Origin: a virus
Taxonomy: Duplodnaviria; Heunggongvirae; Uroviricota; Caudoviricetes
Reading direction: 5' to 3' (one strand)
DNA: 64,000 nt
Virus record (IMG/VR): IMGVR_UViG_3300032117_000012
In this document: positions 155 to 61,283 of the stretch, in pieces
How the letters are laid out: the number at the start of each line of letters is the position of its first letter
Position numbering within the stretch: the first letter of the stretch is position 1
Translations under genes and position numbers: made by a program
Notes under the pieces: generated by a model
The model's input: the letters and a program-made list of their open reading frames with translations, nothing else
Database searches by the model: none
Told to the model about the DNA's origin: nothing

Positions 155-1609
155 TTGTGGAACATGAACAGTCCACACTTAACCTGTAGAAAATGGAGAA
201 TTATTATGTCTTTTAAGAATGCTGTTTTGAATACACCTGTAGTAGCTCGTACCAAGAATGGTATGAGTGCATTGGAGTCCACTCTTAGCAATACTACTGA
301 CCTATTTTTTAAGATCGGTGCAAGCCGTGGTAAGGATATTTCGGTAAATTTGCTTAAGGCATATCATGAAGATCGTGACCTTACCCTTCGTATCATCCAA
401 TGGGCACGAGATGTTCGTGGTGGAGCAGGTGAACGCCAGCTGTTCCGTCAAGCTCTCAAGCTAATTGAAAAGAATTTCAAGAGTGATCTTCTGGATACTA
501 CTCTTCTTGTTAATGTCCCTGAAATTGGACGTTGGGACGATCTTTTGATTTTTGAAGATGTAGAAGTTAAGGCATATGCATTTTCTTTGATTGCAAAGGC
601 GTTGGAGGCTGGAAATGGTCTATGTGCAAAGTGGATGCCTCGTAAGGGTGCGGTTGCTGTAGAACTCCGTAGCTATCTTGGATGGAGTCCTAAGTTCTAT
701 CGTAAGCGTCTTGTAGAACTTACCAAGGTTGTAGAAACTCAAATGTGTTCTAAGGAATGGGATACCATCAACTTTAGCCACGTTCCTTCACTTGCAATGT
801 CTCGTTACTCTAAGGCATTTGGTAAGAATGCTCCTGATGCATTTACTTCCTATAAGGAAGCCTTGAAGAAGGGTGATGATCCTAAGGTCAAGGTAAATGC
901 GGGAGCAGTTTATCCTTACGACATTGTTAAGAACGTTCGTTATGGGGATAATTCTCTTGCTGATGAGCAATGGAAAGCTTTGCCAAACTATGTTGGTGAT
1001 GCAATGGCCCTACCATTGGTTGATGTTTCAGGGTCTATGACTTCTAAGGTTGGAGGTAGCTCTACTATCTCTTGTCTGGATGTTGCAGTATCTCTTGGTT
1101 TGTATCTTTCTGATAAGAATACAGGAGCATTCAAGGATCTATTCTTGACCTTTAGCAGCAAGCCTAAGTTTGAACATCTGAAGGGGACTCTTTCTCAGAA
1201 GCTTCGCCAAATGGAAAGTTCACATTGGGAAATGTCTACTGATCTTCATTCGGCGTTTAATGAAATTCTGCGAGTAGCGGTTTCTAATCGAGTTCCACCT
1301 GAAGACATGCCTAAGGCTCTTCTGATCCTTTCCGATATGCAGTTTAATTGCTGTATGAATTATGATGATACTGCATTCCAGATGATTCATCGTAAGTATC
1401 ATGAAGCTGGATATGAAGCTCCTAACGTCATCTTTTGGAATTTGAATTCCTCTGACAATGTGCCTGTTCGTTTCGATGAAAAGGGTACTGCACTTGTCTC
1501 TGGATTTTCTCCTTCCATTATGAAGTCGATATTGGATGGAGATATGTCTGGAATGACACCAGAAGGTATCATGAAGAAGGCAGTCCTTTCGGATCGTTAT
1601 TCTTATTGA
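155..1609 (+). CDS. vWA (von Willebrand A) domain protein with MIDAS motif DVSGSMTS; alpha-helical N-terminal region; DUF2828-like/Ro60-like architecture (unresolved). Likely start at ATG 206 preceded by GGAG
   Basis: 467-484 aa ORF; DxSxS MIDAS at VDVSGSMTSKVGG; rho-independent terminator directly downstream. Confidence 0.6.
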   Translation: MWNMNSPHLTCRKWRIIMSFKNAVLNTPVVARTKNGMSALESTLSNTTDLFFKIGASRGKDISVNLLKAYHEDRDLTLRIIQWARDVRGGAGERQLFRQALKLIEKNFKSDLLDTTLLVNVPEIGRWDDLLIFEDVEVKAYAFSLIAKALEAGNGLCAKWMPRKGAVAVELRSYLGWSPKFYRKRLVELTKVVETQMCSKEWDTINFSHVPSLAMSRYSKAFGKNAPDAFTSYKEALKKGDDPKVKVNAGAVYPYDIVKNVRYGDNSLADEQWKALPNYVGDAMALPLVDVSGSMTSKVGGSSTISCLDVAVSLGLYLSDKNTGAFKDLFLTFSSKPKFEHLKGTLSQKLRQMESSHWEMSTDLHSAFNEILRVAVSNRVPPEDMPKALLILSDMQFNCCMNYDDTAFQMIHRKYHEAGYEAPNVIFWNLNSSDNVPVRFDEKGTALVSGFSPSIMKSILDGDMSGMTPEGIMKKAVLSDRYSY

Positions 1610-3862: not shown

Positions 3863-3946
3863 TCCTCTTTGTTATGATATTGTGAACATAAATACTACCG
3901 AGGCTTAGATCCTCATACCATCAGAGAATATAAGAGGAAATATCAC

Positions 3947-4894
3947 ATGTCATTTAGTAAATTTAAACAATCCCAACAAGACTCTCTTCGTAAGCTTAGT
4001 GAAGATTTAGCGAAGACCGAAGGTAATAACAATAAGGCAGATGATCGTCTATGGAAGCCTACCGCAGATAAGCAAGGTAATGGTTCGGCCATCATTCGAT
4101 TTTTAGCTACACCAGCCGTAGATGGTGGCGATAGGCAACCATATGTCAAATATTACGGGCACTCATTCAAAAACGAAGCAAATGGAAAATGGTACATTGA
4201 AAAGTGCCGTTCGACAATTGGATTACCAGATCCTGTAATGGAGGTCAATGGTAAACTTTGGGAAGATGGATCGTATAACGATAAATCCCCTGAGCGTGAA
4301 CAAGCTCGTAAGCAAAAGAGACATCAACATTTCGTTGCAAATATCCTTGTGATCAAGGATACCAATGCTCCCCAGAATGAAGGTAAGATCTTTTTATATG
4401 ATTTTGGTCCCGGAATTTTCAATTTCATTAAAACAGCAATGAATCCACCTATTGATGATTTGACAAAAGAACCTTTGCATGCGGCATTTGATCCATTCAA
4501 TTTTTGGACTGGTGCAGATTTTTATATGCGTTTTAATGTTAAAAATAAGCAACGCACATATGAAAATTCTTCATGGGGCGCACCTCGTGTGTTGGCACCA
4601 GATAACGAATTGGAAAAAATCCATGCAAATGAATTTTCAATAAAAGAATTTATTGATCCAGCGACATTTAAGAGCTTTGAAGAGCTTCATAAGCGCCTCG
4701 CATTTGTTTTGGGTAGTAAGCCTGATTCGTCACCAAGAGAAGAGCCTAAGGAGCTTAAAAAGGCTCTTTCCAAGTCAATGAAAGAAGAATCAGTAGATGA
4801 GTCATTGCCTTGGGATAGTGGTTCTGACTCTAATACAACCTTTGGATCGGATGACTTCGATCCTGATGACTTCGCTAAGTTGTTAGAAGATTGA
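3947..4894 (+). CDS. 32: single-stranded DNA-binding protein, T4 gp32 family
   Basis: GNGSAIIRFLATP and KNEANGKWYIEK blocks match gp32 core; acidic C-terminal tail DSDSNTTFGSDDFDPDDF. Confidence 0.85.
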   Translation: MSFSKFKQSQQDSLRKLSEDLAKTEGNNNKADDRLWKPTADKQGNGSAIIRFLATPAVDGGDRQPYVKYYGHSFKNEANGKWYIEKCRSTIGLPDPVMEVNGKLWEDGSYNDKSPEREQARKQKRHQHFVANILVIKDTNAPQNEGKIFLYDFGPGIFNFIKTAMNPPIDDLTKEPLHAAFDPFNFWTGADFYMRFNVKNKQRTYENSSWGAPRVLAPDNELEKIHANEFSIKEFIDPATFKSFEELHKRLAFVLGSKPDSSPREEPKELKKALSKSMKEESVDESLPWDSGSDSNTTFGSDDFDPDDFAKLLED

Positions 4895-10068: not shown

Positions 10069-10724
10069 TATTTCTTCCTTATGGGTTTAGCAGGTTTCTT
10101 TTGTTTCACGGATGACAACATAGCAGCAGAATCCTTCCAAACAGCAGCAGTAGTTGCTTTTTGGAATTTCTGAGTAGGTAACATCAATGCAATATCCCAT
10201 TCTTTAGGCTCAATGTATAAAAATTGGGATCTCACATGATCGTATAAATACATTTTAAAACATGGCTTGAATAATGAAAGATTAGATGCATTTTTTAAGG
10301 TTTGGTATGATATCATTAAACGAGTTGTATCATCATACTTTTTATTATTAGCTATCACATACAAAGCATCCATTAGTTTAGCCCTTAGCACTGGTTGAAG
10401 ATAGTGTAGGTTAATACCGTAGAATCCTCCGGGGAATGTTGCTACTGGAAATATAAGAGGGAATGCATCCCAATACGGAAGCTCATCTTTATGTTTAGCA
10501 TCATATGTGAACATATACATACGTCCCGGCATACATGTATTAGTGGCCAAAGCATTCCCAAATAGGTTATCTCTATTAGAAATCAATCTAGCAGCCCTAT
10601 AATTTAATGCCTTATTACGAAACCAATCTCTTGCCTCTTTAGATTTATTAGGAAGAATACCCAAATCAGCGGCTTTTTTAAGCATATTACTATAGATATA
10701 TTTACTGGTGGTAGTTGAAACCAT
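10068..10724 (-). CDS. hypothetical protein
   Basis: 218-aa ORF, basic C-terminus. Confidence 0.4.
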   Translation of the reverse strand: MVSTTTSKYIYSNMLKKAADLGILPNKSKEARDWFRNKALNYRAARLISNRDNLFGNALATNTCMPGRMYMFTYDAKHKDELPYWDAFPLIFPVATFPGGFYGINLHYLQPVLRAKLMDALYVIANNKKYDDTTRLMISYQTLKNASNLSLFKPCFKMYLYDHVRSQFLYIEPKEWDIALMLPTQKFQKATTAAVWKDSAAMLSSVKQKKPAKPIRKK

Positions 10725-21884: not shown

Positions 21885-22256
21885 TTATCTTGGTGCTCTT
21901 CGCTCTATAACATGATGAATAAATTTCTCAGGAGAAAAATATTTCTCAAATATGGCCAATACTAACATAGGATCATATGGTTTGCAAGAAAAAATATCAA
22001 CATAGGCAGAATTGCCGTCAGACGGGCAAAAATGTGCCGATATATTAGAGTCTTGTAAAAGCTGATAAATGGAGAATCCAACCTTATTAGGATCGTTGGT
22101 TTCACACCATACGATTTGAAGATCCCCAATTTTAATCATTTCGATACGTTCAAGAAGTTCATCTATAAACTTTTGAAATGTTATCTTACAATTAATAGCA
22201 TCTGAATTACAATTAGATGCATCGATGGCAGTCAACCATCCCCAAGGTTCTTCCAT
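21885..22256 (-). CDS. hypothetical protein
   Basis: 123-aa ORF. Confidence 0.4.
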   Translation of the reverse strand: MEEPWGWLTAIDASNCNSDAINCKITFQKFIDELLERIEMIKIGDLQIVWCETNDPNKVGFSIYQLLQDSNISAHFCPSDGNSAYVDIFSCKPYDPMLVLAIFEKYFSPEKFIHHVIERRAPR

Positions 22257-22562
22257 TTTGTTCTCCGTTTAAAAAGTAAAGAATCTATTTATCAAACGGA
22301 GAACAAAACGATTACCAATCTAGGTCATCTTCCTCCATAAGTGCTTCTATATTTCTAGTGTGTAGAGCATTCCGTATCTTTTTTTCTTTTCGATGGGAAT
22401 TACGATCAAAGATATCTCGCCTAAAATCTCGAACATCATCATATTCATGACTTTTACGCATATCATCTTGGCTCTTAGACATTGAAATTAAAACCTCTTC
22501 TCAATAAACACAGATTCTTTACTCCTATTTTACTCTGGTGTCAAGGGTATATTCATTCCCTA

Positions 22563-23204
22563 TTACCCAACCTTCTCCGATTGGTGTGAATTCTTCACAT
22601 GTTTCGCTAGTGGGCCGGGTAAAAAATTCCCGTCCTCTGCGGATGATATGCAACCAAAAGGGCATGGCTTTGCTTTGCTTCTGTCCTTTTTTTCGTCCTT
22701 TCCCGATACCACAATCTGTGAAGATTGAAGATCTAAAACATCATCTGTTTTTGTAACATTATGCTGATTCAAATCTGGCAATAATCCGGGAAATGTGTTA
22801 TGAACCAAATCATATGTGATATTCTTATAAGGACATCTTTTCTCTTTCATAGCAAGAACAAGTTCTGCATCGTCTGGATCAAGAGCCTCTAGTAGCTGTA
22901 CAAACATAGTTTGACGTTTAAGATCTGGAATATTGTCAGCCTGTCCTTTGATGAATAGATAAAGGGTTCTAGACTCCCTGTAAAGACTTCCTTCACTATC
23001 AGCAGCCTTTGGCATCTTTTTAAAGTTAGGTGCGCCTTCAGGAAGGTTAAATACTACGTCAGGGTGAAACATATACATCAAAATTTGTACGAGTGGTTTA
23101 ATGCTTGCACATGTACCCAATGCATCTTGGCGTTGTTTAGGATCTTTAATTCCAGAAATAATCTTGAGAATTTCAGAAATCCCCTGTCTACGCTGTTCAG
23201 TCAT
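22563..23204 (-). CDS. hypothetical protein
   Basis: 213-aa ORF; Cys/His pairs near C-terminus. Confidence 0.4.
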   Translation of the reverse strand: MTEQRRQGISEILKIISGIKDPKQRQDALGTCASIKPLVQILMYMFHPDVVFNLPEGAPNFKKMPKAADSEGSLYRESRTLYLFIKGQADNIPDLKRQTMFVQLLEALDPDDAELVLAMKEKRCPYKNITYDLVHNTFPGLLPDLNQHNVTKTDDVLDLQSSQIVVSGKDEKKDRSKAKPCPFGCISSAEDGNFLPGPLAKHVKNSHQSEKVG

Positions 23205-23385
23205 ATTATCATTCGCCTTTTATAATTGTCTTAAATTGTGAAACACTATCAAGAAACATCAATTGTTTCTTATGTGGAAGATCATAGAAGTTCTTCTTAT
23301 TATATAGGAGGCGATAAAATTGAGATGCTTGGGATATTTCTTCACTTGTATACATATCGAGATTCTACCTATTCATAAATTTTGT

Positions 23386-24111
23386 TCAAATCAATGCGTT
23401 GTTACGAACATCATCAAACAGCTGGTCACGCAATAGTTCACCATCTGAATACACATCTTGCAAAACATCATCTTCTGCATACATCTCATATTTAACGGGA
23501 TGGCTCTCCGTGGTATAAGTAAAAAACTTACTATCCCAATATGGGGTATGCTTAAGAATCATTCGACCCTTCTTAGACCTTTTACCAGAATCAGTAAGAG
23601 GATCCTTATACACGTCAATCCATTCACCGTTGATAAATGCCGCCGAACACTTCATTGCAAACTTTTGATCGTCACGATTAACAATCTGTAGAAGAGCGCC
23701 GCCTTGGCCGAATGCCACATTATCAGCACTATAACCAATAGCAATAATAGCATTCAGAATTTCTTTGATAGTGTCAATAGTAATACCATCGCCTTGAATT
23801 ACACGAACATTGTTGAGAACCTTATATCCTTTATCATTAATAGCATGCCCAAAATGATAATCAAGGATTCGGATGCAGCTTTCTACCACTGTTGCTGGAT
23901 CGCCACTATCTGGGCGGATAACGGTAAACCCACCAAGTTCTCCGTTCAAGATAATCTTCTGTTTAATTTCAGGATCAGTTCCTAGGAGTTCGCAAAACTC
24001 AAAAATATTATAAGTATCTCCTACTATTGCAAAAGTCTTACCACCGGTGCCAAAATTGTCAATCATCGTGTTAATGTAGGTTCGTTCACTCATTTTATAT
24101 TTCCTTTCCAA
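23386..24111 (-). CDS. nadV: nicotinamide phosphoribosyltransferase (NAMPT/NadV), C-terminal fragment translated from its own ATG
   Basis: IRPDSGDP, VIQGDGI, RSKKGRM blocks align to NAMPT C-terminal half. Confidence 0.8.
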   Translation of the reverse strand: MERKYKMSERTYINTMIDNFGTGGKTFAIVGDTYNIFEFCELLGTDPEIKQKIILNGELGGFTVIRPDSGDPATVVESCIRILDYHFGHAINDKGYKVLNNVRVIQGDGITIDTIKEILNAIIAIGYSADNVAFGQGGALLQIVNRDDQKFAMKCSAAFINGEWIDVYKDPLTDSGKRSKKGRMILKHTPYWDSKFFTYTTESHPVKYEMYAEDDVLQDVYSDGELLRDQLFDDVRNNALI

Positions 24112-25199
24112 TCAACTAGTTTAAAAGAGCATCCATTAAACTTAGCGTTTCTTTTTGAATAACTATTATATGTGCCTTCTTTGATGGCTATGTTCCATAC
24201 CCCTTCAGTGCATCTATGTTCTCTCAAAAATGAACCTTTATTACCACAAAAGGTAAACAAAAGATTGTCTACCGGGGAATAGCATTCTATTTTCTTGTCA
24301 GTAGCCTTCATGTGAATACTAGGATCATACTCATCGCAGTTGATATTCACAAACTTATTCAGTTCTTTAATAAAGACTGTGACCATCCCCTTTGTTGTTC
24401 CATGATCAGGTTTCCTATTTTCTTTGGACGCCAGTGTTGAGTATCTATCCTTATTATGGTAATATTCTTCGGTTGTTACATGACATATTTTATCAGTGAA
24501 GGAGTCTTTTACAGTAACCTTACCTGCATGAATGCCATTAAGTTCATGATTGTCTTCTGTAGTTGCATATCTTCGCATTCCAGCATCATCTATTACTTTC
24601 CCTCCAAACACCTTAACATGAACACTAGGATCAAACATGCTAACTGGCATGGAACTTGTTTCTCCTGTTTCAATAACTCGTACACTAACTTTGCCAGACG
24701 ATGCGGTGCGATATAGATGTTTATTGTTTCGGTATTCCTCTACGGAAACTCTACAAACACCACCAGATGATATTTTTATAACCCGAACACTGTTGCTAGT
24801 AGGATAAGCATGAATAGTAGAATCAAACTCATCTTTTGGAATCCTGAAATAAGTTGAATCTTCTAGCAATCTAACAACAACCGTATTTTTAGTATTCCAC
24901 CCTCTGCCTCCGGATATTATATTATAAGTATCTACCCTTTTCACGAAATCTTCATTTACAAGTTCCGCTTCTTTGTTATTCATCTCATCAAACGAATCAT
25001 ACATGTATAATATGCGTCTGCTAAACGCATGAACACCGTATTTTAACAAGGCATTAGTAAAACGAGTCCCGGAACCAAGATATCCATCATCAATGTTGGT
25101 AGTAGAATGCTGTCCAACATATATCATACCATTGATAGTATTTGTAGTTTCGTATATAATATAAAACATTTTTAAGTATGCTCCATTGCAGTAACACAC
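24090..25199 (-). CDS. GIY-YIG homing endonuclease inserted inside the NAMPT gene
   Basis: N-terminal IYETTNTINGMIYVGQHS...GYLGSGT GIY-YIG module; sits between the two NAMPT halves with a 4-nt gap and an overlap. Confidence 0.75.
   Translation of the reverse strand: MCYCNGAYLKMFYIIYETTNTINGMIYVGQHSTTNIDDGYLGSGTRFTNALLKYGVHAFSRRILYMYDSFDEMNNKEAELVNEDFVKRVDTYNIISGGRGWNTKNTVVVRLLEDSTYFRIPKDEFDSTIHAYPTSNSVRVIKISSGGVCRVSVEEYRNNKHLYRTASSGKVSVRVIETGETSSMPVSMFDPSVHVKVFGGKVIDDAGMRRYATTEDNHELNGIHAGKVTVKDSFTDKICHVTTEEYYHNKDRYSTLASKENRKPDHGTTKGMVTVFIKELNKFVNINCDEYDPSIHMKATDKKIECYSPVDNLLFTFCGNKGSFLREHRCTEGVWNIAIKEGTYNSYSKRNAKFNGCSFKLVDWKGNIK
24090..25199 (-). mobile_element. freestanding homing endonuclease gene insertion splitting nadV
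   Basis: see CDS; no room for a group I intron core at either junction. Confidence 0.6.
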
Positions 25200-25203
25200 T
25201 TAT

Positions 25204-25908
25204 TTAGTCCTTTTGGTGACTTGCACTTATAGAATGTTCGCTAGCAGGAATACTAAAACCAGCCATATCAGCACCATAATACCGACGAGCATACAAAAGA
25301 GCTTCGATAGTGTCAGTACCCATGAAGTTGATAAGATGGGCAGATCCGCCAATTCCAGCAGATTCCAAACTAGATACGCCACGAGCGCCGAAATCGTGCA
25401 ATTTAAAATTAATATCAGCGGGTGTGCCAGTATGTTCAAGAGCATCCAAAATCACCTTCTTAATTTCACGACTATTGGTTGCTACTGTTGTAGGATACCA
25501 AATCGAACGAAGAATAGCAGTTTCAAGAAAACTTGTCAACCAATAACATTTTGGATCTGTGTTGATGATAGTCGCCAACACATTACGAACAGGAATAACC
25601 ATTCCCTCTGGAACTGCCTTAATATGAACAGGAAGGCAACCATTATGAGCATGAAGAATATATTCCCATCCTTCACGGTTAAATGGTTCACCATGGGCAG
25701 TAATAATGGCCTCAGCTTCATCAATCATGTCTTGGGTAATAGGTGCAAGCAAGTATTCCTTGATAAATGCTTGGAGGCCAAAAAATACGGTTTCATCATA
25801 CTTTCCACCCCTACTCTCGATATAACTGTAGATATATTCGGTGTTAGGAGGATATTGATTGAACTGGCTGTACTTATACGAATCTGCGTTAAGAATAATA
25901 TTTTTCAT
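25204..25908 (-). CDS. nadV: nicotinamide phosphoribosyltransferase (NAMPT/NadV), N-terminal fragment
   Basis: ADSYKYSQ, HDFGARGVSS, PASEHSISA blocks align to NAMPT N-terminal half; ends ...SHQKD where homologues continue. Confidence 0.8.
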   Translation of the reverse strand: MKNIILNADSYKYSQFNQYPPNTEYIYSYIESRGGKYDETVFFGLQAFIKEYLLAPITQDMIDEAEAIITAHGEPFNREGWEYILHAHNGCLPVHIKAVPEGMVIPVRNVLATIINTDPKCYWLTSFLETAILRSIWYPTTVATNSREIKKVILDALEHTGTPADINFKLHDFGARGVSSLESAGIGGSAHLINFMGTDTIEALLYARRYYGADMAGFSIPASEHSISASHQKD

Positions 25909-25961
25909 AGTAGCAAAACTCCTTTGCTTGTTAATGATCTTGGTCTGTCCTAGATCAGTCG

Positions 25962-26276
25962 TTATTTAGGCGAAAACTTAAAAACCGCATCATAATTTTC
26001 ATTCCATCCGGGAGAATCATATACTACAGTCCAACCCTGTTGTCTATAAATTTCTTCAATATCAAGATAATTATTTTCGAATATTTCTACTCGTGTCATC
26101 CCAGATTTAATGAGCTTTTCTATAATTGTATTTTGAGAAATTGTAAATGGTCTATTATTAAATTCCTTAACAATTAACTCATTAACAGTTTCGATAACAA
26201 TTTGAGGAATATAATGGACTTTACTAGATAAAGCTTCTTTTGGTGAAATAGGAAGTATATGTCTAGATGTTACCAT
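25962..26276 (-). CDS. hypothetical protein
   Basis: 104-aa ORF between nadV and macrodomain gene. Confidence 0.4.
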   Translation of the reverse strand: MVTSRHILPISPKEALSSKVHYIPQIVIETVNELIVKEFNNRPFTISQNTIIEKLIKSGMTRVEIFENNYLDIEEIYRQQGWTVVYDSPGWNENYDAVFKFSPK

Positions 26277-26758
26277 TATTCAAACTCCACTAAAGTTACC
26301 GAGCCTCCTTGCTCTGTTATCACCTTAGCAAAATCTTCTAGCATAGTCAAGATACGATTTTTATCTCCACCAGCAAGACCCATTCCGATATAAGGAAATC
26401 CAAATCTAGCTTTACTAAGTGTAGTAAGCTTCTTTAGAATAAGATAGAAGCTCTCATACTCGAAATGATCAATGCCACGAGGCGTATAGTGGACCTGAGT
26501 GTATGCATTGATCACGATGAAATTAAAAGTTGTATACGAGCTAAAGTTGCCAAGCTTAGCGACAGGATTCTTCCACTGTTGAGATGCCAAACAATCAGCA
26601 TCATATGCACCCGGATATCTTGCACGAATTTCCTTGGCAATGCCCCCTGCCATTGTGTTTTGACAGTTGCAACCATGTACGATAACATCAAACTCACCTT
26701 GTTCGGCAAGATCAATAAGGTTTCCTTTGGTATGTTTAAGCATTGTTCTGACTTTCAA
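26276..26758 (-). CDS. macrodomain protein (ADP-ribose binding/processing)
   Basis: GEFDVIVHGCNCQNTMAGGIAKEI is the macro-domain signature block. Confidence 0.7.
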   Translation of the reverse strand: MKVRTMLKHTKGNLIDLAEQGEFDVIVHGCNCQNTMAGGIAKEIRARYPGAYDADCLASQQWKNPVAKLGNFSSYTTFNFIVINAYTQVHYTPRGIDHFEYESFYLILKKLTTLSKARFGFPYIGMGLAGGDKNRILTMLEDFAKVITEQGGSVTLVEFE

Positions 26759-26975
26759 TTTTTCGAATTTTCGGCTTCATATTTTCATAAATTATATGAC
26801 GACAAGCGGCTAATGAAAATGGGTTGTAAGGAACAAAACATCCTCCTGAACCATCATCATTCAGCGACCATCTAGAACAAAATTCTATACAATCACATTC
26901 AACACGATCTGTTGTTTTATCATTTATCATAAAATTTATCCCAAATTGCGTTTCGGAATCGAATATGGTGGTAAA

Positions 26976-27281
26976 TTATATTCGATTCCGAACCTCATCA
27001 TCCCATTTGCAAAAGGTTTTGTATTTCTTAGTAGACTGTTCTACAATTGCGATCGATTGAGAAAAATTGAAATTATTGGCGACAAAGTAATTCAAAGCAG
27101 CGTATACGTCACCGATTTCTTCGATAAACTTTTCATTAAGATCGCCAGACCAATGATCAGTCTTGCCTTCAGATCCAATCAGCTTTCCGCAAACTTGTTG
27201 CAGTTCACCCAATTCTTCGATCAGCTTGGACAACCCGTTCCATTCGCTTGATCCTATACAATATGGTTTAGTCATGGCCAA
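26976..27281 (-). CDS. MazG-like nucleotide pyrophosphohydrolase (small all-alpha NTP-PPase)
   Basis: LIEELGEL and EEIGDVYAAL EExxE/D metal-binding motifs. Confidence 0.5.
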   Translation of the reverse strand: MAMTKPYCIGSSEWNGLSKLIEELGELQQVCGKLIGSEGKTDHWSGDLNEKFIEEIGDVYAALNYFVANNFNFSQSIAIVEQSTKKYKTFCKWDDEVRNRI

Positions 27282-29018: not shown

Positions 29019-30116
29019 TCATACTCCTAGGAAGAAATTGATAATATGAAAATGATCATCAAAAAGCATATCTTCACGAAGTTCCCCGATAGGGATCCAC
29101 TTTGCTTTTTCAGCATCATCCGCACCTTTGACCTTAGGCAATTTTACATCATCTGTCAACTTGAAATGGGCAGCATGAGTGATAACCCTACCCAAAGTAG
29201 ATCGATGCACATCATCGAACACATGTTCGCCTACTTGACAACCACGGATAACCTTTTCAGGAACCTTAATAAGAGTTTCTTCCTTAAGTTCACGAAGGAT
29301 ACCATCGGATATACGTTCATCCATCTCTAAATGGCCTCCCGGAAGTGCCCACAGCCCCTTTCCCGGCTCACTGCGGCGCTTTACCAACAGAATATGCCCA
29401 GATTGCTCTACAACAGCATCTACAGTAACATGTTTAACTGGATATGGTGCAGCTGCCCATGATTTCTTATATGCCTTTACGTGGACCAATTCCGACTTCA
29501 ATTGGTCATACTCTGAGGTATGAATAAATCGGTCAAAGAGAAATTGTGCGCTCTCCTTAGGAAGAAGAGAATCTTGGACTTCCCATTTATGTAACCGTCC
29601 TTCAAGAAATCCTTCACGAATATTAGTTGCATGAATATCTCCATGAACATCCACATTCACGGATTCCCATTGGGGGAACAATTTAAGATAATATGAAGAA
29701 TGATCTTTAGAGGCTCCAATCAAGCCTACTTTGGCATCAGCAGTTCCATGAAGATGAAATCCACCCTCATTAATGATATCAAGAGTTACATTATTAGCAA
29801 TATCTTGAATTTGCTTAACCCACGCACTATCATTGTAAAGCTTATCATATAGAGGCTTAATAATAAGGCGACTGTTAGCAGTTTCTGTGGAATATCCAAA
29901 TGGAATCCCTACATGATCTGAGAATACCTCAGAAATAACATTTTCTCGCTCTTGAAATGTAAAGGGGGTACGAATTGTACGTGCTTTACCAGCAGATCCA
30001 ACCAAAACCAAGACATTTCTTGATTTCTCTAAAGCGGTTTGGATAACCTTGACATGGCCAAGGTGAAGAGGACTAAATCGCCCAATAAAAACCAATAGGT
30101 CAAATTCTTTATTCAT
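29019..30116 (-). CDS. natV: bifunctional NMN adenylyltransferase / Nudix hydrolase (NatV/NadM-like)
   Basis: N-terminal GRFSPLHLGH HxGH nucleotidyltransferase motif; C-terminal Nudix box GGHLEMDERISDGILRELKEETL. Confidence 0.85.
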   Translation of the reverse strand: MNKEFDLLVFIGRFSPLHLGHVKVIQTALEKSRNVLVLVGSAGKARTIRTPFTFQERENVISEVFSDHVGIPFGYSTETANSRLIIKPLYDKLYNDSAWVKQIQDIANNVTLDIINEGGFHLHGTADAKVGLIGASKDHSSYYLKLFPQWESVNVDVHGDIHATNIREGFLEGRLHKWEVQDSLLPKESAQFLFDRFIHTSEYDQLKSELVHVKAYKKSWAAAPYPVKHVTVDAVVEQSGHILLVKRRSEPGKGLWALPGGHLEMDERISDGILRELKEETLIKVPEKVIRGCQVGEHVFDDVHRSTLGRVITHAAHFKLTDDVKLPKVKGADDAEKAKWIPIGELREDMLFDDHFHIINFFLGV

Positions 30117-30531: not shown

Positions 30532-31386
30532 TTAGTTGCTAGGAAGCTGGATCATATTGGATGCATTGCCTGCAACATAAGTTGGCAAATGACCATCCCA
30601 CTTTTCCAGATACTTTTGCTTCAGAATGTTGGGATTCGCTTCTAGAGCTTGTGCCTCGATCTGGGTAGCCTTAGCATCACCTGTAGCCTTAGCTACTCGT
30701 GCTTCTGCATCAGCCTTGGCAGTTGCGACATTAGCTTCAGCTGCCAGAGCTTGCTGTTGGTTAGTGATCTTTTGATTGATCTGTGCCATAACAGCCTGAG
30801 GAACACGAGGACCGCCAGCCCAATAAAGCTGCTCTACAACCAAACCACGGTCGTTGAAAAACTTCTGAACATCAACCTGAGTTCGTGCCAAAAGCTCTCC
30901 CTTCTTAGCACCATAGATATCTTCAATGCTCATTGCAGAGGCTTGATTAATCAAAGCTCCACGAATTTCATTGCGAAGTGGTCCAGCAATGATATCGTCC
31001 ATATCCATACGATAGTTTGTATACAACTTAGGAGCCTTAGATGGATCCACATGGTATGCTACACCAATATCTGCTGTAGCACTCATACCGTTACTATCGT
31101 TGAACTGAAATTCCTCGTTAACATTATTCCCTTCATTGGAAGAAGCTGTCCAAACATAAGTATGAGTCGATACAGGATACTCATAAATCGAAGTGCCTAG
31201 TCCGGTAAAATAAGTACCAATTCCCTTAGGATCTGGATCTACACCGGCATTAGAACCCCATGAGGTAACTTGGATACCCACGTTACCCGGAGCAACCCTC
31301 GAACACGCACCAAGACTGACAGCGCAAACGCTAAGCAAAATAATATCACGAATCTTCATTATTAACATCTTCCTTTTGATTGACAA
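30532..31386 (-). CDS. SPFH/band-7 (prohibitin/HflKC-like) domain lipoprotein
   Basis: lipobox SLGAC; SPFH core with Ala/Gln/Glu-rich coiled C-terminal region. Confidence 0.65.
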   Translation of the reverse strand: MSIKRKMLIMKIRDIILLSVCAVSLGACSRVAPGNVGIQVTSWGSNAGVDPDPKGIGTYFTGLGTSIYEYPVSTHTYVWTASSNEGNNVNEEFQFNDSNGMSATADIGVAYHVDPSKAPKLYTNYRMDMDDIIAGPLRNEIRGALINQASAMSIEDIYGAKKGELLARTQVDVQKFFNDRGLVVEQLYWAGGPRVPQAVMAQINQKITNQQQALAAEANVATAKADAEARVAKATGDAKATQIEAQALEANPNILKQKYLEKWDGHLPTYVAGNASNMIQLPSN

Positions 31387-60442: not shown

Positions 60443-60519
60443 TGGTAGCCCCACCGAGTTTCGATCCCGGATCATAGACTTGAGAGGTCTATATGCTACC
60501 CAACTTACACCATGGGGGC
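60443..60519 (-). tRNA. tRNA-Glu(CTC)-like, CCA encoded; acceptor has one C-C mismatch; 5' end overlaps the stop region of the GIY-YIG gene
   Basis: anticodon arm TAGAC CTCTCAA GTCTA; T-arm CCGGG ATCGAAA CTCGG; acceptor GCCCCCA/TGGGGCT. Confidence 0.5.
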
Positions 60520-61143
60520 CGTTCTTCCTTTATACCATCCATCTGGAATATTGTCAATTCTTTTTATCTTTTTATTTACTATACCATCAGTAATCCATTG
60601 TGTTCCAAATTGTGAGTTTTCTTTTCCACAATTTTTTCCTATTTTAGATAAACGCATTTTATTTTTAGATTCATCTGAATGTTTTTTACCAAGAAATGTA
60701 GAAAATGCTTCTTTACCGTGGCGTTCTATAATCTTAGATATTCTATTTAATTTCCAACTTTCGGATGAATGATATTCTTTAAATTGTTTAGATGTATAAT
60801 TTCTACGACTATATCCTCCCATGCTAGAAGCTCGTGGTGATCTTAGTCCATTTGAATTAATATAACTAAATCCACCTTTACCTCCAACACAGATATTGTA
60901 GGTGTCATTTCTTGCACAAAACTCTTCAGTTACTAATTCGGCTTCCTTGGAATTCATCTCAAATTTGGTATCAAAAATATATACGATTTCTTTATCAAAA
61001 TTACTTATTCCATATTTTTCAATGGCATGATTCAATAATGTTCCTGATCCCATATATGAATCTTTTAAATTCTTTGTTTGATGTTTTCCGATATAAATTT
61101 TACCATTTATCTTATTTGTTATTTTATAAATTGTATAAAACAA
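60505..61143 (-). CDS. GIY-YIG homing endonuclease
   Basis: MFYTIYKITNKINGKIYIGKHQT...YMGSGT GIY-YIG module. Confidence 0.7.
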   Translation of the reverse strand: MFYTIYKITNKINGKIYIGKHQTKNLKDSYMGSGTLLNHAIEKYGISNFDKEIVYIFDTKFEMNSKEAELVTEEFCARNDTYNICVGGKGGFSYINSNGLRSPRASSMGGYSRRNYTSKQFKEYHSSESWKLNRISKIIERHGKEAFSTFLGKKHSDESKNKMRLSKIGKNCGKENSQFGTQWITDGIVNKKIKRIDNIPDGWYKGRTAPMV

Positions 61144-61210
61144 AATATTCTCCGGGTTTACATAATTAGATTTACCATATGTACTATATATGTAAACCCG
61201 GAGTTCTATG

Positions 61211-61283
61211 TAGAGCAGACGGGGTTCGAACCCGCTTACACTTGATTGAAAATCAAGCCGCCCGCCGATTAGCGTTCTGCTCC
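61211..61283 (-). tRNA. tRNA-Glu(TTC); CCA not encoded
   Basis: GGAGCAG acceptor; anticodon arm CTTGA TTTTCAA TCAAG; T-arm GCGGG TTCGAAC CCCGT. Confidence 0.65.

Follow-up and report, generated by a model that had tools for sequence, protein, structure and literature searches.

In Pectobacterium phage CB7/phiTE, the gene for nicotinamide phosphoribosyltransferase (NAMPT) is split by the HNH endonuclease gene CB7_245; reverse transcription PCR (RT-PCR) revealed that the insertion is not removed from the mRNA, and the authors proposed post-translational association of the two products on the model of Aeh1 NrdA (Buttimer et al., 2020, PMC7344957). The established model of such 'genes in pieces' is Aeromonas phage Aeh1, where mobE interrupts nrdA and the two parts of NrdA together give an active enzyme (Crona et al., 2011, PMC3045599). 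Phage NAMPT constitutes half of the NAD-reconstitution pathway NARP2, which counters NAD-depleting defences, and the paper on this pathway makes no mention of split genes (bioRxiv 10.1101/2024.02.11.579819). Here, we analysed a stretch of 64,000 nucleotides of Caudoviricetes DNA (IMG/VR record IMGVR_UViG_3300032117_000012; the whole stretch is called the window) in which NAMPT is not encoded as one polypeptide and in which a gene for a GIY-YIG endonuclease stands between its N-terminal and C-terminal halves (N-half and C-half). We consider it likely that a freestanding, Seg-like GIY-YIG homing endonuclease gene (HEG) has split the NAMPT gene, that this element homes, and that the two halves assemble without splicing. 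The main features of the locus are given below in window coordinates.

25908-25204, minus strand: NAMPT N-half, 234 aa plus stop TAA at 25206-25204, comprising NAMPT_N and the beginning of the catalytic barrel
25236-25234, minus strand: codon CAT for the catalytic His225 of the N-half, equivalent to human His247
25170..25203, minus strand: spacer of 34 nt from the N-half stop to the endonuclease ATG, holding GGAG at 25184-25181
25169-24090, minus strand: Seg-like GIY-YIG endonuclease gene, 359 aa, stop TGA at 24092-24090
24093-23386, minus strand: NAMPT C-half, 235 aa plus stop, protein starting MSERTY, with matches to PF04095, PHROG 448 and PRK09198
23920..25260, minus strand: putative co-conversion tract: the endonuclease gene and adjoining exon sequence, about 50 nt on its upstream and about 170 nt on its downstream side

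This layout of three open reading frames (ORFs), all on the minus strand, agrees with the original prediction made from the sequence of the window, which had also described a 369-aa endonuclease ORF beginning 4 nt after the N-half stop and overlapping the ATG of the C-half. The overlap stands, the C-half ATG (24093-24091) and the endonuclease stop sharing ATGA; the start had to be corrected, which gives a protein of 359 aa and a 34-nt spacer. The mechanical ORF listing had opened the middle ORF at a GTG (25199..24090, 369 aa) and the C-half at a TTG (24111..23386, 241 aa). The endonuclease almost certainly starts at ATG 25169, with GGAG 11 nt upstream, because M[FY]Y.IY opens every one of its homologues. 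For the C-half, ATG 24093 is the most probable start, with the Shine-Dalgarno sequence AAGGA (24106-24102) sitting within the final codons of the endonuclease gene, and the 'MERKYK' extension from TTG 24111 is an artefact of the ORF listing. At its C-terminal end the N-half reads ...PASEHSISASHQKD (also given as ...IPASEHSISASHQKD), followed by TAA. The inserted segment measures 1113 nt from the N-half stop to the next NAMPT codon and is divisible by three, which puts the C-half into the reading frame of the N-half; the endonuclease ORF has its own start and uses a frame other than that of the N-half. The unit of NAMPT N-half, endonuclease and NAMPT C-half is probably co-transcribed: a terminator scan found no terminator-like site in either junction, which fits a single transcript. 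A promoter scan around the junctions gave counts no better than in shuffled sequence, and a hairpin sequestering the ribosome-binding site at the endonuclease start was rejected, the weak hairpin predicted in the spacer having a non-significant RNA fold z-score of -1.36. The split NAMPT is not an assembly artefact, because the identical N-half protein is recorded on 17 contigs (5 loci were returned, from 5 different samples) and all three ORFs recur at 100% amino-acid identity to the window in the related locus L003 (related metagenomic loci carry L numbers throughout).

The two halves had been predicted to be collinear with NAMPT and to lack no residues at the junction, which is borne out by profile positions and by gapless structure alignments. 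In Pfam, PF18127 matches the N-half at 9.6e-32 and PF04095 is shared across the halves, with profile positions 1-59 in the N-half and 91-222 in the C-half. Positions 13-260 of the 500 in PHROG 448 are matched by the N-half and 263-493 by the C-half; the corresponding ranges in NCBIfam PRK09198 (465 positions) are 5-238 and 241-461. Each half alone scores under the 405-bit cut-off of the NCBIfam equivalog (338 and 242 bits). When concatenated, the halves align with Xanthomonas NAMPT 7yqo (E 1e-146) gaplessly across the junction, as they do with human NAMPT, where D234 of the N-half lies opposite human D256 and the Met of the C-half opposite human H257 (human residue numbering was counted by hand along the alignment). 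The break is found 9 residues past the catalytic histidine. According to the alignment with human NAMPT, catalytic as well as phosphoribosyl pyrophosphate- and nicotinamide-binding residues are retained and spread over both halves: the N-half keeps the equivalents of human F193, R196, D219 and H247, the C-half those of D279, R311, D313, G353, D354, G383 and G384.

A single-sequence AlphaFold2 (AF2) model of the joined halves was unusable (predicted local distance difference test, pLDDT, 36). The rerun with a 130-row alignment reached a pLDDT of 94.4 and a predicted TM-score (pTM) of 0.92, and Foldseek returned TM-scores of 0.92-0.94 between this model and NAMPT crystal structures. Placing the break on NAMPT structure, as the original prediction had suggested, located it in a loop between two helices: in the model, the junction between residues 234 and 235 belongs to a 5-residue coil (231-235) between helices 225-230 and 236-248, and this coil falls in the model's lowest-confidence 10-residue block. 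The motif PASEHS[IV] was considered as a marker of split alleles and ruled out, since the intact NAMPT of phage 4MG carries the same motif.

The middle ORF matches PHROG 314 'homing endonuclease' at 2.7e-30, and in tblastn searches its residues 1-150 match genes annotated as Seg-like GIY-YIG in T4-like phages and others, at about 1e-22. The catalytic domain extends over about aa 1-95 (25169-24885), with the motifs IIY at 4-6 and YVG at 17-19, and E67/E69 and N83 are invariant in the alignment of homologues. Curated models remained below their cut-offs (TIGR01453: 5.9e-5, 23 bits vs 56; Pfam PF19835, SegE_GIY-YIG: 0.003-0.018; Pfam PF01541, GIY-YIG: 0.005 in one member), and relatives of the endonuclease carry Pfam GIY-YIG, SegE or NUMOD3 matches; membership in the Seg-like GIY-YIG group is supported by homology, not by curated thresholds. 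A profile search of the PDB with the endonuclease gave chance-level matches only. Among 50,697 cultured phage records there was no full-length relative of the endonuclease (best coverage at most 52%) and no DNA nearly identical to the locus. No Pfam or family match above threshold was obtained for the C-terminal 260 aa; this region is presumed to bind DNA and may represent an undescribed module of Seg-like endonucleases. By eye, about aa 96-359 (24093-24884, minus strand) resemble 5-6 repeats of a unit of roughly 30-45 aa, G.V.V...G...V..EY..N..Y; a self-BLAST of the C-terminal region returned the self-match only and did not confirm internal repeats. The region also shows a chance-level likeness to KOW-type modules (ribosomal L24, SPT5 KOW6). 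A second Seg-like GIY-YIG gene is present at 60505-61143 (minus strand), between the tRNA-Glu genes 60443-60520 and 61210-61283; it matches the NAMPT-associated endonuclease at 54% identity over its first 90 residues (E 8e-28) and differs from it in the C-terminal part.

A protein search with the N-half gave 1,666 hits, among them many clusters of about 234-251 aa on long contigs of up to 323 kb. Among the top 120 N-half clusters, 36 end at the split site and 66 read through it; these counts were made by C-terminus and corrected by hand (39 script-flagged split clusters minus 3 truncated intact-type ones, and 67 read-through clusters minus 1 split-like one). Split alleles terminate in EHS-[IV]xx[SA][YFH]G[KR]-stop or in a short tail, and intact alleles read through as EHS-T[IVM]T[SA]WG. 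A homologous endonuclease occupies the same NAMPT site in L008, L009, L011/12, L013, L017-20 and L063; these homologues are full-length and 38-93% identical to that of the window, and the NAMPT-associated endonuclease family comprises about 33 full-length clusters. The more divergent L066 has the same order of N-half, endonuclease and C-half, with the break in the same region. The endonuclease gene also occurs freestanding beside an intact NAMPT gene, directly upstream of a 450-aa NAMPT in L021 and directly downstream of a 503-aa NAMPT in L067/68. L008 has intact NAMPT halves on both sides of an endonuclease gene whose GIY-YIG domain carries a 2-nt frameshift. In L061/L062 (at least 4 contigs), the endonuclease has been deleted save for about 13 codons of its 3' end, which are fused to the N-half tail, and NAMPT is still encoded by two ORFs (265 and 231 aa), both intact and overlapping each other. 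The codons left behind carry the ribosome-binding site and ATG context of the C-half; the window, L009 and L011 share the conserved Shine-Dalgarno sequence and ATG at the endonuclease 3' end, and L061 has kept both despite its HEG deletion. Relatives of type B (L011, L013, L061) have short tails of about 15 and 5 residues at the two halves, and the window halves have none. Taken together as sequence patterns, these states indicate that the element is mobile and not a one-off, and that the arrangement is widespread and bears signs of active homing.

The HEG-less homologues L010 and L021 define the insertion site, a comparison that had likewise been proposed from the outset. L010 is the nearest relative of the window N-half (83%) and has an intact-type gene with one in-frame TAG (2432-2434) in place of the Lys codon of its relatives; a point mutation, a sequencing error or stop-codon reassignment may account for it. 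The 248-aa ORF of L010 was considered as a second split site and ruled out, the gene being of intact type with this one in-frame stop. In L069, a lone C-half-like ORF is found near a related endonuclease gene, without an N-half in the 4 kb available, where the contig ends. A conserved motif resembling CTGCTCYRTTGCRGGAA stands between the N-half and the endonuclease start in L009 (5709-5752), L011 (5735-5787) and L013 (2941-3000) and has diverged in the window. The consensus of T4 late promoters, TATAAATA, comes after this motif in L009 and L011, immediately before the endonuclease gene; the window has 11 copies of TATAAATA vs 13 expected, which amounts to no enrichment.

Sliding-window comparison of the window with L008 revealed a DNA identity of 83-97%, mostly at least 90%, over a tract that comprises the endonuclease gene and reaches about 50 nt into the exon upstream and about 170 nt into the exon downstream; outside this tract, identity in the well-aligned gene is 57-83%, mostly 60-79%. 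Synonymous divergence (dS) of the endonuclease gene in this pair is 0.43 and the ratio of non-synonymous to synonymous divergence (dN/dS) is 0.087, indicating purifying selection, and synonymous sites of NAMPT are saturated (proportion of synonymous differences, pS, about 0.8). Such a tract of high identity would be as expected if homing had co-converted the flanks. Towards L010, protein identity steps from 85-86% (N-half residues 1-210) to 65% (N-half 211-234) and 46% (C-half 1-66) and returns to 73% in the next 90 residues of the C-half, so the exon segments next to the junction have had a history different from that of the remaining gene. Split and intact alleles interleave when the N-terminal 220 residues are placed in a neighbour-joining tree (no support values). 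Both presence/absence polymorphism at a fixed site and a pattern of flank co-conversion are therefore found at this locus. In split alleles, the sequence ...ACN TCN TGG GGN CGN..., which is conserved in intact ones, is replaced just upstream of the insertion point, and this replacement would protect split alleles from their own endonuclease.

A working heteromeric NAMPT formed from the two halves is likely, because both halves are under purifying selection. Between split alleles, dN amounts to 0.13-0.36 for the N-half and 0.24-0.56 for the C-half, with synonymous sites saturated. Since part of this signal could predate the split, the 66 junction-proximal C-half codons that travel with the endonuclease were measured separately; their pN/pS (pN, proportion of non-synonymous differences) is 0.09-0.57 at a pS of 0.49-0.84, which is near saturation, and the comparison of L011 with the HEG-less L061 gave 0.13/0.80 for this segment. 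Two-piece function is further supported by persistence of the halves after HEG decay or loss, by conserved start signals, by the catalytic residues and by retention of the partner gene for nicotinamide mononucleotide (NMN) adenylyltransferase (NMNAT), which uses NAMPT-made NMN and lies 3 kb from the split gene, forming with it a NARP2-type pair:

29019..30116, minus strand: bifunctional NMN adenylyltransferase/Nudix gene (NCBIfam NF003786, 411 bits vs a cut-off of 397; Pfam CTP_transf_like and NUDIX)

Many phage HEGs are intron-encoded, and the endonuclease ORF might lie inside a self-splicing or degenerate group I intron whose removal restores one NAMPT mRNA. Such an intron would be in keeping with TIGR01453, the 'group I intron endonuclease' model, being the best NCBIfam match to the catalytic domain, albeit below cut-off, and with an insert whose length leaves the C-half in frame. 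It is opposed by an Rfam search at E<=10 over both strands of 22500-27000, which returned no group I or group II intron, and by non-coding flanks of just 34 nt upstream and 0 nt downstream of the endonuclease ORF (45 and 35 nt in relatives), which uphold the earlier statement that there is no room for a group I intron core. In addition, a conserved start and Shine-Dalgarno sequence belong to the C-half itself, L061 remains two ORFs after HEG deletion and not one restored gene, and the comparable CB7 insertion was experimentally shown to be unspliced (PMC7344957), so that an intron at this site appears very improbable. We give hardly any credence to a 'fractured gene' in which split-intein halves trans-splice the NAMPT fragments around the endonuclease gene: phage-like metagenomic loci do show the identical order of host N-part, freestanding endonuclease and host C-part (PMC2677866), but the halves abut gaplessly when aligned with intact NAMPT, with 0 extra residues at the C-terminus of the N-half and 0 at the N-terminus of the C-half beyond Met, and thus no intein halves can form. 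A Ser does follow the C-half Met, yet there are no intein blocks, and the tails of the type-B relatives are short and variable in sequence. The split by a freestanding HEG, neither intron nor intein, which the original prediction had favoured, is instead supported by the agreement of the Rfam search, the flanks, the junction, the model loop and the HEG-less relatives.

Two further explanations accept the split and dispute its mobility or its function. According to one, an old fission was inherited vertically in one phage lineage and the endonuclease is a passive resident that does not move; in most pairs the endonuclease indeed diverges in step with the NAMPT halves and faster than they do (for window vs L009, 73% identity in the N-half and 49% in the endonuclease). 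This is difficult to combine with the interleaving of split and intact alleles, an intact gene (L010) as the nearest relative of the window N-half, the L008 identity profile and L010 mosaic, which show the cassette exchanged with its flanks, the occurrence of the endonuclease family beside intact genes, and the purifying selection acting on the endonuclease, and we judge it distinctly improbable. According to the other, which we regard as unlikely, the insertion killed the NAMPT gene, and its two ORFs are remnants in decay that survive only because little time has passed since then. The equivalog scores under cut-off of each half are in line with this, as is L069, which may be a degraded locus. 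On the opposite side, split alleles diverge by up to about 40% in protein with synonymous sites saturated and keep their ORFs, catalytic residues, starts and ribosome-binding sites; constraint acts on the cassette-linked codons, both ORFs outlast HEG loss in at least 4 contigs, and the NMNAT partner gene is retained.

Several points weigh against a homing HEG that leaves a functional two-piece enzyme. The activity of that enzyme is deduced from conservation only; the purifying selection seen in the distal exons may partly date from an intact-gene phase if homing converts alleles repeatedly, and only the 66 cassette-linked codons and the HEG-less relic bear directly on the split state. The low pLDDT at the junction may come in part from an alignment built of half-length sequences, the frameshift in L008 could be an assembly error, and the allele tree is a simple neighbour-joining tree. 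Finally, Pfam and NCBIfam GIY-YIG models match the endonuclease only under their curated cut-offs.

In the mechanism that we propose, the endonuclease would, during co-infection, cut a HEG-less NAMPT gene in, or close to, the conserved codons that directly follow the catalytic histidine. Repair off the HEG-carrying allele would then transfer the HEG to the recipient together with the stop codon that precedes it and the ribosome-binding site and ATG that follow it; exon sequence would be co-copied as well, about 50 nt from the upstream and about 170 nt from the downstream side. This step is shown as a sequence pattern only. The insertion would fall in the 5-residue loop between the helix starting at the catalytic His and the next helix, and NAMPT would be made as polypeptides of 234 and 235 aa. 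These would join non-covalently, presumably as an (N-C)2 version of the usual homodimer, and the two-piece NAMPT would supply NMN to the neighbouring NMN adenylyltransferase; neither RNA nor protein splicing would be involved. After decay or deletion of the HEG the gene would stay in two pieces, because precise excision is unlikely. We lean slightly towards the broader view that a GIY-YIG family specialised on phage NAD-reconstitution genes actively converts one-piece NAMPT to a stable two-subunit enzyme in many uncultured phages, and that the fission outlives the element. If this holds true, homing endonucleases would repeatedly, and by a natural route, bring about permanent fission of a gene for an anti-defence metabolic enzyme, and the loop that follows the catalytic His would be a site naturally permissive to splitting, struck independently by HNH and GIY-YIG elements. 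This site could guide split-enzyme design and tests of barrel assembly. One gene family displays stages of a HEG life cycle, namely beside an intact target, inside it, frameshifted, and deleted with a lasting scar. Surveys that look for a phage NAMPT of about 470 aa could mistake split genes for fragments or pseudogenes, and 36 of the top 120 N-half clusters are split.

Other genes in the vicinity were also noted. In the NAD/ADP-ribose neighbourhood of the split NAMPT are a gene for a Macro-domain protein (26276-26758, minus strand), which lies at the Pfam threshold (22.2 bits vs 22), and one for an SPFH/Band 7 protein (30532-31386, minus strand); in L011/L012, a NADAR-domain gene occupies an equivalent neighbourhood. 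A Prs-like gene, not an NMNAT gene, adjoins the endonuclease-associated NAMPT homologue in L066 (158-1009) and L067 (1-790), and likewise in phage CB7; from these neighbours, the NARP1-type (Adps/Namat) pathway may be a further target of the endonucleases. L013 has, upstream of its split NAMPT, a 601-aa ORF (138-1943) that appears by eye to be ATPase-like with an intein-like insert (C...HN ends, endonuclease-like middle). In L009, a DUF723-domain gene (3944-4891, minus strand), possibly a further nuclease, lies directly upstream of the split NAMPT, and an IS605 OrfB/TnpB-like gene (10530-10708, minus strand) lies at the locus edge on this 305-kb phage-like contig. Elsewhere in the window, an S-adenosylmethionine decarboxylase-like gene was found at 21885-22256 (minus strand, Pfam 3.4e-14). 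The window contains 19 tRNA genes, 18 of them loosely clustered on the minus strand (42716-63591) with small ORFs interspersed and one at 1825-1900 on the plus strand; a gene at 155-1609 (plus strand) matching PHROG 850 'RNA-binding protein' at 5.7e-144 lies about 200 nt upstream of tRNA-Ala.

Seg genes are usually intergenic, and the window endonuclease differs from them in lying inside a coding sequence. It is also set apart from T4-type Seg endonucleases by its C-terminal 260 aa, which have no above-threshold Pfam match. It resembles them in being freestanding, with an N-terminal GIY-YIG domain, and a pattern of flank co-conversion like that of the window is the signature of intronless homing, as for T4-type Seg endonucleases (review, PMC2988022). 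Fractured genes share the three-ORF order, mainly in phage-like metagenomic DNA, and their endonuclease cassette, like that of the window, brings its own gene-control signals (Dassa et al., 2009, PMC2677866); they carry split inteins, whereas the window halves are without intein sequence and cannot be ligated.

With Aeh1 the window shares a freestanding endonuclease gene inside a conserved enzyme gene, the insertion supplying stop and start signals. In Aeh1 there is no RNA or protein splicing, and the two polypeptides assemble into an enzyme of proven activity; by analogy, the window halves may assemble in the same way. The host gene in Aeh1 is nrdA, and its endonuclease gene mobE is of HNH type. 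Insertion-derived tails are essential for assembly in Aeh1 (PMC3045599), whereas the window halves are tailless and short tails occur only in the type-B relatives.

The closest match is CB7, found in a tblastn survey of cultured phages, where NAMPT is annotated as two coding sequences around the HNH gene; the latter shares 19 nt with the ORF of the N-half and 4 nt with that of the C-half. Both systems have the same enzyme family, two ORFs and a break in the same inter-helix region. The CB7 endonuclease is an HNH protein of 193 aa, unrelated to the Seg-like GIY-YIG protein of 359 aa in the window, and its break lies about 8 residues further from the EHS motif (16 vs 8 in the window), inside a family-specific insertion. 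CB7 NAMPT adjoins a Prs-like gene, whereas that of the window is NMNAT-linked, and because of this neighbour the CB7 gene may be a NARP1-type homologue. The CB7 report is without population-level homing evidence or HEG-less split relics (PMC7344957), both of which are seen among the relatives of the window. The literature search found no paper combining NAMPT, split, phage and GIY-YIG. HEG-driven genes in pieces, and even a split NAMPT, are already published; new here are the different endonuclease family, the precisely mapped site and the wide environmental distribution, and the most interesting part of the comparison is the split relic that persists without its HEG.

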